Assembly (NCBI GenBank): GCA_946493085.1
Contig: CAMMAC010000005.1
Span: forward strand, 945-64,944
Source of the DNA: an uncultured Clostridiaceae bacterium
GTDB lineage: Bacteria; Bacillota; Clostridia; TANB77; CAG-508
Direction: 5' to 3'
Length of the DNA: 64,000 nt
The translations under genes and the position numbers were made by a program. Every line of letters starts with the position of its first letter. Positions within the stretch are counted from its first letter, which is position 1. Below the pieces are notes generated by a model, which made no database searches, was not told the DNA's origin, and saw only the letters and a list, made by a program, of their open reading frames with translations. Positions 9,704 to 9,836 of this stretch are shown piece by piece.

Positions 9704-9836
9704 TTGAAAAATTTATATAAAAGTGATAATATATCTCTATCAAAGTTTTAAAATTCCTGTTCTAATTTAAGGAAGAGCAGTTAAAATAGATGATGCTAAC
9801 TGGTAATTAAGAAGGTCAATTGACAAGGAGGAAGAT
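9704..9836 (+). promoter_or_regulatory. sigma-A-type promoter plus conserved ~110-nt leader, copy A
   Basis: TTGAAA(9704-9709)-17 nt-TAATAT(9727-9732). The leader is about 80% identical to 12794..12926. Hairpin ctgttct/agagcag (9757-9780) and palindrome GTCAATTGAC (9815-9824) just before the RBS. Confidence 0.65.

Follow-up and report, generated by a model that had tools for sequence, protein, structure and literature searches.

Our analyses of a 64,000-nucleotide (nt) stretch of contig CAMMAC010000005.1 from an uncultured Clostridiaceae bacterium (the window) revealed that two small genes within it are each preceded by a copy of the same promoter–leader cassette, which recurs in at least 55 distinct copies, one to four per genome, in uncultured Clostridia of the chicken and human gut. 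The cassette is real, conserved and under selection. It spans ~160 bp and comprises a promoter, an AU-rich leader of ~95 nt and a strong Shine–Dalgarno (SD) sequence, and its leader is not a described RNA family. Two short hairpins in the leader, P1 and P2, covary across the family, and their maintenance by selection is the conclusion that comparison of the copies argues for best. On the basis of predicted folds, we tentatively favor a reading in which the leader would be a portable, bistable element that gates translation through competition between P1 and the pairing of an anti-SD sequence with the SD.

A Promoter–Leader Cassette Occurs Twice in the Window

An earlier note on this DNA had described a promoter and leader at positions 9704 to 9836 (copy A) that are duplicated at 12794 to 12926 (copy B) in front of unrelated coding sequences, and all of the elements that it listed were recovered where it had placed them. 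Both copies carry a −35 hexamer, a 17-nt spacer and a −10 hexamer (TTGAAA/TAATAT in copy A and TTGAAA/TACTAT in copy B), followed by a 7-bp hairpin (P1) with a loop of 10 nt in copy A and 6 nt in copy B and by a 10-nt palindrome (P2) located immediately 5′ of the SD, which differs between the copies by a symmetric change (GTCAATTGAC in copy A versus GCCAATTGGC in copy B). The description of the first hairpin needs one correction: CUGUUCU/AGAGCAG contains a U·G wobble, so that as DNA it is an imperfect inverted repeat. The downstream open reading frames (ORFs), of 67 and 49 amino acids (aa), are mutually unrelated and have no family match.

The conserved blocks common to the two copies, one of 26 nt (92% identical) and one of 20 nt (95% identical) with the 4-nt insertion of the copy A hairpin loop between them, are unique to these sites in the window. 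When up to three mismatches were allowed, each block was found at only two sites, compared to chance expectations of 0.03 and 0.12, and none of 100 shuffled sequences gave two. The hairpin core occurs just twice in the 1.37-Mb source genome (95% complete), and a repeated search of the window with filters off returned only weak matches, at 35554 and 59251, both of which lack P2. Overall, copies A and B are ~85% identical over ~47 columns and 76% identical over 85 nt.

Alignment of the wider family defined the layout of the unit. From its 5′ end it consists of an A-rich stretch, TTGAAA, a variable 17-nt spacer, TGnTAATAT, ~20 AU-rich nt, P1 and UUUAAAUAGAU; its 3′ half consists of a central block of one of two types (GCAACUUGUUAACUUAUUUUAG, type I, or ACAGCAAGUAAAAUUAAGUUAG, type II), GAAAG, P2, AAGGAGG, an A-rich spacer and ATG. 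The promoter hexamers are conserved across 39 aligned copies, and similarity among the copies stops between the SD and the start codon. In relatives, the DNA matching the A-rich stretch of copy A provides the last codons and stop codon of an upstream Bro-N or ORF6N gene, and copy A itself retains, upstream of its −35 hexamer, the stretch that forms the end of the Bro-N gene in those relatives. Because upstream genes enter the A-rich stretch in two different frames, this stretch is conserved as DNA and not as protein. The cassette is ~80% identical between genomes in which the four-fold degenerate sites of asnB, the gene that lies convergent to copy B, are ~51% identical (that is, saturated) and the asnB coding sequence 78% identical. 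In this comparison the cassette is as conserved as that coding sequence. Cassette similarity between genomes does not follow asnB similarity, and many between-genome pairs of cassettes are 80–88% identical over ~158 nt.

Some further features of the unit were noted. A conserved UUAACUUA(U/A), present in most copies (12884–12892 in copy B), appears to resemble the translational enhancer of the phage T7 gene 10 leader (UUAACUUUA). A conserved upstream peptide was considered and rejected: the ATG within AAATAGATG opens ORFs of six to seven codons in both window copies, and most copies have ATA or ATT at this position. A miniature inverted-repeat transposable element was likewise rejected, as the unit is without terminal inverted repeats and is present in just one to four copies per genome.

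The Cassette Defines a Family in Gut Clostridia

The earlier note had suggested that further copies be sought in the genome and its relatives. When 200 genomes from the same family were searched by pattern, the complete promoter–leader turned up in other genera, and a BLAST search of 400 genomes gave strong matches in 12 genomes besides the source genome, from six genera. A degenerate pattern run across all GTDB species identified 32 loci, ~30 of them in metagenome-assembled genomes of uncultured Clostridia, many from the gut of chickens or other animals, and a metagenome scan added 22 contigs, every one genuine, with human gut among the sources. After removal of duplicates, the main subfamily (subfamily 1) contains 45 distinct copies, to which a covariance model added ~10 diverged copies from the same genus (subfamily 2). 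Every copy points toward an ORF, with P2 located 0–3 nt 5′ of the SD. The leader is present, in at least one and at most four copies, in 16 of the 42 genomes of the genus; among 150 genomes drawn evenly from the family as a whole, only 8 have it. Neither window copy matched Rfam 15 at the gathering threshold, nor was there any match at E values up to 10 over 9600–13100, and neither subfamily had a match in the phage, plasmid and viral collections searched.

The source genome harbors a third, diverged member outside the window, on the minus strand of its contig C10 (~34,600–34,750). This member contains, in order, AAUCUCC-UUAG-GGGG, AUAGAGGUAACUAACAAC, a hairpin GAAUA-AAUU-UAUUC and AAAGGAGG, and precedes a gene for a 153-aa protein (MNRIIVMFQEDDVELNMS...), orthologs of which carry subfamily-2 leaders in relatives. 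On another contig of this genome (C17, ~2,440–2,530, plus strand), a short leader with AUUCC, AAUAGUAAACAAC and a hairpin AGC-AAUU-GCU directly 5′ of the SD precedes the gene for a 69-aa lysine-rich protein, a homolog of which adjoins a subfamily-2 copy at locus L146 (L-numbers denote loci in relatives and metagenomes). This short leader may be a minimal member of the family.

P1 and P2 Covary Across the Family

RNAalifold analysis of the leader alignment returned P1 and P2 only, and an all-against-all scan of alignment columns detected no covarying pair beyond these two hairpins. Across the 55 sequences, 97.4% of 535 cells are paired, with changes on both sides at 9 of the 10 pairs, and the cells that do not pair are mostly G·U on the plus strand. 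None of 500 shuffles reached the observed values, and controls in which the positions were slid gave 25–43% pairing.

P2 has the consensus GYCAAUUGRC. Its stem is GCC/GGC in 27 copies, GUC/GAC in 20, GCU/AGC in 2 and UCC/GGA in 1; the wobble stems GUC/GGC and GCU/GGC are also present, and the stem is broken in three or four copies only. The loops are mostly AAUU, with AAAU, GAAU, AACU and AAAUU found as well. When the stem columns were left out of tree building, at least seven C–G/U–A switches were needed at the middle P2 pair, a count that is rough since the tree is short and recombination is likely. Both main versions of P2 (GTC..GAC and GCC..GGC) are found within the source genome. In subfamily 2, P1 is CUCC/GGAG with a loop of 9–14 nt, and in one further copy CUAC/GUAG. 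Thus, the P1 stem has been wholly replaced, yet neither its position nor its 3′ flank nor the remainder of the leader has changed, which is consistent with base pairing and not with a fixed protein-binding palindrome. Single-sequence folds of copies A and B are no better than those of shuffled sequences (z = +0.55 and −1.37, respectively), and the structure claim therefore rests on comparison and not on energy.

The earlier note had read the duplication as a shared cis-regulatory RNA or operator rather than a duplicated gene, and had anticipated that a failure to find more copies and covariation would refute it. Both were found, which supports the interpretation as a shared regulatory leader. 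Between the two forms that the note had left side by side, the RNA fits better than the operator, as P2 keeps its complementarity through five stem versions and P1 is wholly different in subfamily 2.

A Competing Fold Is Predicted to Close the SD

Partition-function calculations predicted an SD accessibility of 0.29 for the leaders compared to 0.50 when their upstream part was shuffled, and 49 of the 55 leaders fell below their own shuffles. In the averaged map of predicted pairs, UUCCU (UCUCC in subfamily 2) pairs with AGGAG of the SD, and both subfamilies have this anti-SD on the 5′ side of P1. The subfamily 1 map also pairs UUCUAAUUUAAG, which contains the 5′ strand and loop of P1, with CUUAUUUUAGAA, located directly upstream of P2. 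The predicted long-range helix has an energy of −8 to −9 kcal/mol compared to ~−2.5 kcal/mol for shuffled sequences, is found with both types of central region, and would explain why the P1 loop is nearly invariant, though loops are normally free to vary. For 41 of 55 leaders, the minimum free-energy (MFE) structure pairs the SD with the anti-SD zone at P1, and the best fold with a free SD is on average just 2.7 kcal/mol worse. As modeled, the leader would therefore have the hallmark of an SD-sequestering leader, namely a conserved anti-SD that competes with an alternative hairpin.

The Cassette Precedes Many Unrelated Small Genes

At least 12 unrelated ORF families, of 28–110 aa (with one ORF of 183 aa), are found behind subfamily-1 leaders. 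They include membrane peptides of 44–53 aa, which are the commonest ORFs behind the leader, zinc-ribbon proteins, helical proteins of 66 aa and 109 aa, and a family of 75–85 aa with the motif FVIYNYL. The zinc ribbon is the sole subfamily-1 client family with a Pfam match. Leader subtypes and ORF families are shuffled with respect to one another; both leader types are found, for instance, with the MNKSIDERV family and with the MV.KKI.VTCDECG family. The ORFs behind subfamily-2 leaders are of 75–214 aa, and their neighbors are genes for a serine recombinase, Bro-N proteins and a nucleotidyltransferase/HEPN pair. In a human-gut lineage (L125:96–215 and L110), in which the central block has a tandem duplication of TTAACTTA, the leader is located away from asnB and precedes an 85-aa member of the FVIYNYL family.

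As for the window genes, a homolog search with the 49-aa peptide behind copy B found only four near-identical clusters. The 67-aa ORF behind copy A differs in its 3′ part in the sister genome, G304; an in-frame CGG (GAA CGG GCA) lies at 9913–9915 within it. Between the two copies, the gene at 10199–10972 encodes a 257-aa protein with 41% identity to residues 94–346 of a 352-aa XRE-type helix-turn-helix (HTH) protein from a relative (L064), where the gene for the HTH protein sits directly upstream of a leader copy. The window protein is without the HTH part, and in the sister genome its gene is replaced by a 131-aa ORF6N fragment.

Islets Accumulate at the asnB 3′ End in Relatives

In subfamily 1, a conserved palindromic terminator (GAGGTCGCAATTGCGACCTC or a variant of it) lies between the small ORF of the cassette and the 3′ end of the convergent asnB gene, which it adjoins directly. 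At seven loci (L077, L082, L084, L085, L086, L094 and L101), two to three tandem direct copies of the last 75–85 nt of asnB are present. The asnB remnants all stop at one point (...CAT), beyond which the conserved sequence TGGNTGTCAGAAANNGACACGAGGCTATAT... begins, the junction reading ...CAT followed by TGGNTGTCAGAAANNGACACGAGG. The units between asnB repeats are 1.2–2.4 kb in length and contain one larger gene each, usually together with a leader and a small ORF. This larger gene encodes an ORF6N protein with a PLD-like domain, a Bro-N protein or an AAA ATPase. The ORF6N protein with its weak PLD-like domain matches PADLOC PDC-S05 (E = 5e-121) and the Bro-N protein matches PDC-S13 (E = 3e-80), and it is PADLOC single-gene defense candidates that are found most often upstream of the leader (for example, L065:6458–7438 and L071:8125–8817). 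One leader directly follows a gene that is cas9-like, as judged from its N-terminal sequence only (L083:4489–7512).

These repeats follow the pattern expected of serial insertion at the 3′ end of asnB, which accounts for the presence of several leader copies in one genome. The pattern, with repeats of the target 3′ end and a conserved junction, is seen in relatives only: the source genome has a single asnB end, and the junction sequence was not found in it. No integrase or recombinase gene was seen in or beside the arrays in fetched flanks of ~4.5–8 kb, where the contig allowed; the three tyrosine recombinases of the source genome lie elsewhere. The asnB codons at the end of the islet homology in the window (13203–13215; GTCATCAATTGAC on the plus strand and GGTCAATTGATGAC in the asnB sense) share 9 nt with P2 of copy A, a match that may be due to chance in AT-rich DNA.

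The coordinates of the window features are given in Table 1. The terminators after the small ORFs, such as that at 13095–13115, are perfect palindromes centered on CAAT(T)G and have the same fold on either strand. Two further strong, perfectly palindromic terminators with AAUUU-type loops stand in tandem 3′ of the sortase gene, at 9579–9605 and 9645–9673.

Table 1. Features of the two cassette copies and their surroundings, in window coordinates
Feature	Position	Strand	Basis
A-rich stretch (AAAAATGAAGTAGATTAG) upstream of the copy A −35	9685–9703	+	Alignment: kept across other copies
Copy A predicted promoter: −35 TTGAAA (9704–9709), 17-nt spacer, TG-extended −10 TAATAT (9727–9732)	9704–9732	+	Consensus scan
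Copy A anti-SD UUCCU (9754–9758) and P1: CUGUUCU (9757–9763), 10-nt loop, AGAGCAG (9774–9780)	9754–9780	+	Pairing, covariation; predicted alternative pairing
Copy A P2 GUCAAUUGAC (9815–9824), SD AAGGAGG (9825–9831), start codon ATG (9837–9839)	9815–9839	+	Pairing, covariation
67-aa ORF behind copy A	9837–10040	+	Family match: none
Copy B A-rich upstream stretch and predicted promoter: TTGAAA (12794–12799), TGnTACTAT ending at 12822	12780–12822	+	Consensus scan, alignment
Copy B anti-SD UUCCU (12844–12848) and P1: CUGUUCU (12847–12853), 6-nt loop GAUUUA, AGAGCAG (12860–12866)	12844–12866	+	Pairing, covariation
Copy B stretch CUUAAUUUAGAGA, predicted to pair, as the 3′ strand, with the P1 loop and 5′ strand in the SD-closed fold	12890–12902	+	−8.7 kcal/mol versus −3.3 shuffled; average pair map
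Copy B P2 GCCAAUUGGC (12903–12912), SD GGGAGG (12913–12918), start codon ATG (12927–12929)	12903–12929	+	Pairing, covariation
49-aa two-helix membrane peptide ORF behind copy B	12927–13076	+	Member of the commonest ORF family behind the leader (M..IVLKIVAC...)
Palindromic terminator AGCGGTCGCAATGCGACCGCT between the copy B ORF and convergent asnB	13095–13115		Related terminator after most cassettes of relatives
asnB 3′ end, last ~85 nt; homology stops at GTCAT beside CAATTGACC	13127–13215	−	Comparison with relatives

A Candidate Translational Gate and Its Alternatives

In the reading that we favor, the cassette would be a portable expression unit with a promoter of the sigma-A type. In its open state, P1 (CUGUUCU/AGAGCAG, or CUCC/GGAG in the diverged subfamily) would form and leave the SD free. 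In its closed state, the SD would instead be paired with UUCCU or UCUCC in the pyrimidine-rich strand, or flank, on the 5′ side of P1; in the main subfamily, the remainder of P1 and its loop would pair with the stretch just upstream of P2, and the small hairpin P2 would stand between the two helices, beside the SD. Recombination would have placed the unit before numerous unrelated accessory genes, most of them small, and in the main subfamily it would occupy the asnB-proximal end of islets that accumulate at the asnB 3′ end, an accumulation that could result in a genome with two or more leader copies. Transcription from the promoter, the closed fold and the effect of this fold on translation are all model-based predictions.

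Several points weigh against this reading. The pair counts were made on an alignment of the 55 sequences that was fitted to the structure model, which favors the structure; the leader copies are mutually related, and P2 is only 3 bp in length. The closed fold is a thermodynamic prediction in AU-rich sequence, and its strands barely vary, so that it draws no independent support from covariation; moreover, any pyrimidine run pairs with an SD. The long-range helix of copy A is no better than that of its shuffles (−3.4 versus −4.9), and in neither window copy does the MFE structure pair the SD with the anti-SD zone. Nor do the predictions show a sharp response to temperature, the probability that the SD is unpaired being 0.26 at 20 °C and 0.31 at 42 °C, although such predictions are weak evidence either way. 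Finally, no dedicated trans factor emerged from the candidate regulators that were considered. The XRE-like neighbor was rejected, being present in 1 of the 42 genomes of the genus compared to 16 of 42 for the leader; the source genome has no match to CsrA (PF02599) and a single NusG match, that is, no specialized NusG paralog. A GGA in the P1 loop, as a CsrA-controlled leader would have, is found in copy A and its sister copy only.

An extended −10 and an SD that are both near consensus, in a single unit that stands before at least 12 unrelated ORF families, could also belong to a constitutive cassette for high expression or mRNA stability that does not switch at all. In such a cassette a strong promoter, an AU-rich leader that draws ribosomes, protective or insulating hairpins and a strong SD would act together, and reuse would follow simply because the unit works before any new gene. 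That no cognate regulator was found among the XRE-like, CsrA and NusG-paralog candidates is in keeping with this explanation, and promoter reuse upstream of nonhomologous genes has been documented (PMC3575422). However, it predicts an open SD, yet 49 of the 55 leaders are predicted to be more closed than their shuffles. It also leaves the conserved P1 loop and single-stranded blocks unexplained, and, with the 5′ end placed from the location of the −10, the first hairpin would begin ~20 nt downstream, too far for a classical 5′ stabilizer. We consider this explanation somewhat unlikely. It seems to us improbable that the palindromes are instead DNA operators, with GYCAATTGRC and/or CTGTTCT-N6-AGARCAG recognized by a dimeric repressor or activator and the transcription of all cassettes controlled as one regulon. 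P2 is indeed a perfect 10-bp palindrome with an AATT center that is invariant in most copies, the leader contains a further short palindrome (AAC-NN-GTT or ATAGT-A-ACTAT) whose 1–2-nt spacer makes an RNA hairpin impossible, and XRE-type HTH genes adjoin some copies. But symmetric double changes at three P2 positions, with GTC..GAC and GCC..GGC both in one genome, fit pairing and not recognition by one protein, and the P2 stem is kept with the nonpalindromic loops AAAT, GAAT and AACT. In addition, the spacer of P1 ranges between 6 and 14 nt and its arms are replaced entirely, the sites would lie at ~+20 and ~+85, downstream of the promoter, and the neighboring XRE-like gene is far rarer in the genus than the leader.

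The abrupt end of similarity between the SD and ATG, the mutual shuffling of ORF families and leader subtypes, and the precise islet junctions with a conserved end sequence would all be accounted for if the hairpins, chiefly P2, were recombination sites at which a site-specific recombinase swapped ORFs behind a fixed promoter, as in integrons; the 9 nt that copy A P2 (GTCAATTGAC) shares with the asnB junction codons (GGTCAATTGATGAC) point the same way. Against this, no recombinase gene was found in or beside the islets within the fetched flanks, the commonest form of P2 (GCCAATTGGC) is unlike the asnB junction, P1 spacing is variable, there are only one to four copies per genome, and each cassette has its own promoter, unlike integron cassettes. 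We consider this explanation very improbable. A core site for a tyrosine recombinase at P1 (7-6-7 geometry) was rejected because of the same variation of its spacer from 6 to 14 nt. We likewise consider very improbable a leader of the type I toxin kind, in which small hydrophobic peptides would stay untranslated, with their SD sequestered, until mRNA processing, under antisense RNA control. The commonest client ORFs are membrane peptides, SD sequestration is predicted, and the neighborhood is defense-like and mobile-element-like; however, most other client families are soluble (zinc ribbons, helical proteins of 66–110 aa and, in subfamily 2, proteins of 130–214 aa), there is neither room nor sign for a conserved antisense promoter between the ORF and asnB, and no known toxin family was matched.

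Relation to Known Systems and Significance

Short conserved elements common to unrelated, horizontally acquired operons are known from JUMPstart/ops leaders, which are bound by RfaH, and from LoaP-dependent leaders. In contrast to those systems, the source genome has only a housekeeping NusG, and the clients are single short genes for which processive antitermination is not needed. Integrative elements that pile up in tandem at a gene's 3′ end are likewise known, for example from arrays of cis-mobilizable elements and integrative and conjugative elements (CIME/ICE) at fda in Streptococcus thermophilus. The asnB islets of relatives resemble these arrays in that the target 3′ end is directly repeated, the junctions are precise and the units stand in tandem. 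They differ in that the units are 1.2–2.4 kb, have no integrase and consist of one defense-candidate gene, the leader and a small ORF, and the source genome has no repeated asnB end. Phage morons and integron cassettes are, like the cassette, small self-contained gene units between conserved flanks. However, all units described here share one promoter–leader, and the phage and viral collections gave no match to it, unlike morons; and each has its own promoter, with no attC-like site or integron integrase seen, unlike integron cassettes.

With SD-sequestering leaders such as riboregulators, fourU and ROSE thermometers and riboswitch platforms, the leader has in common a predicted anti-SD:SD pairing that competes with a local hairpin for one and the same strand, the two states being nearly iso-energetic. 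Unlike them, it has no evident ligand pocket or aptamer-like core, no sharp predicted melting and no Rfam match, and it has many unrelated client genes. A precedent for its distribution is that of putative mobile promoters, in which similar upstream noncoding sequences were found before nonhomologous genes, within a genome and across genera, using a cutoff of 80% identity over 50 nt in the −150 to −50 region; those sequences are absent from Rfam and have no known means of moving (Matus-Garcia, Nijveen & van Passel 2012; commentary PMC3575422). The cassette shares with them one upstream sequence before nonhomologous genes and the lack of Rfam membership, whereas its unit includes a structured leader and SD, covarying hairpins and one insertion hot spot. 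With respect to the cutoff, the window pair alone falls just below 80% over 50 nt (~85% over ~47 columns and 76% over 85 nt), in contrast to the many longer between-genome pairs. Promoter reuse before nonhomologous genes is thus already known (PMC3575422); new here are the full structured leader, the breadth of its client genes and the link to integrase-less asnB islets. The asnB hot spot, the predicted anti-SD fold and the shuffling of a promoter-plus-leader module among genes go beyond the earlier note.

A further, more speculative step, which we regard as quite doubtful, is that the leader is an RNA switch controlled in trans and carried with acquired genes, by which the small genes of asnB-linked defense islets would join one signal and form a regulon on arrival, with P2 possibly serving as the joint at which ORFs are swapped. 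Should the leader indeed work as an RNA gate, uncultured gut Clostridia would have yielded a new cis-regulatory motif and, if our reading is true, a rare documented case in which a promoter–leader–SD module, and not a gene, is the conserved unit of exchange. The asnB 3′ end is a previously undescribed insertion hot spot, occupied by integrase-less islets that combine candidate defense genes with changing tiny proteins, and these islets provide a concrete place in which to seek the function of small proteins and the means by which islets move. The cassette itself would offer a ready-made expression signal for a lineage that is without genetic tools.
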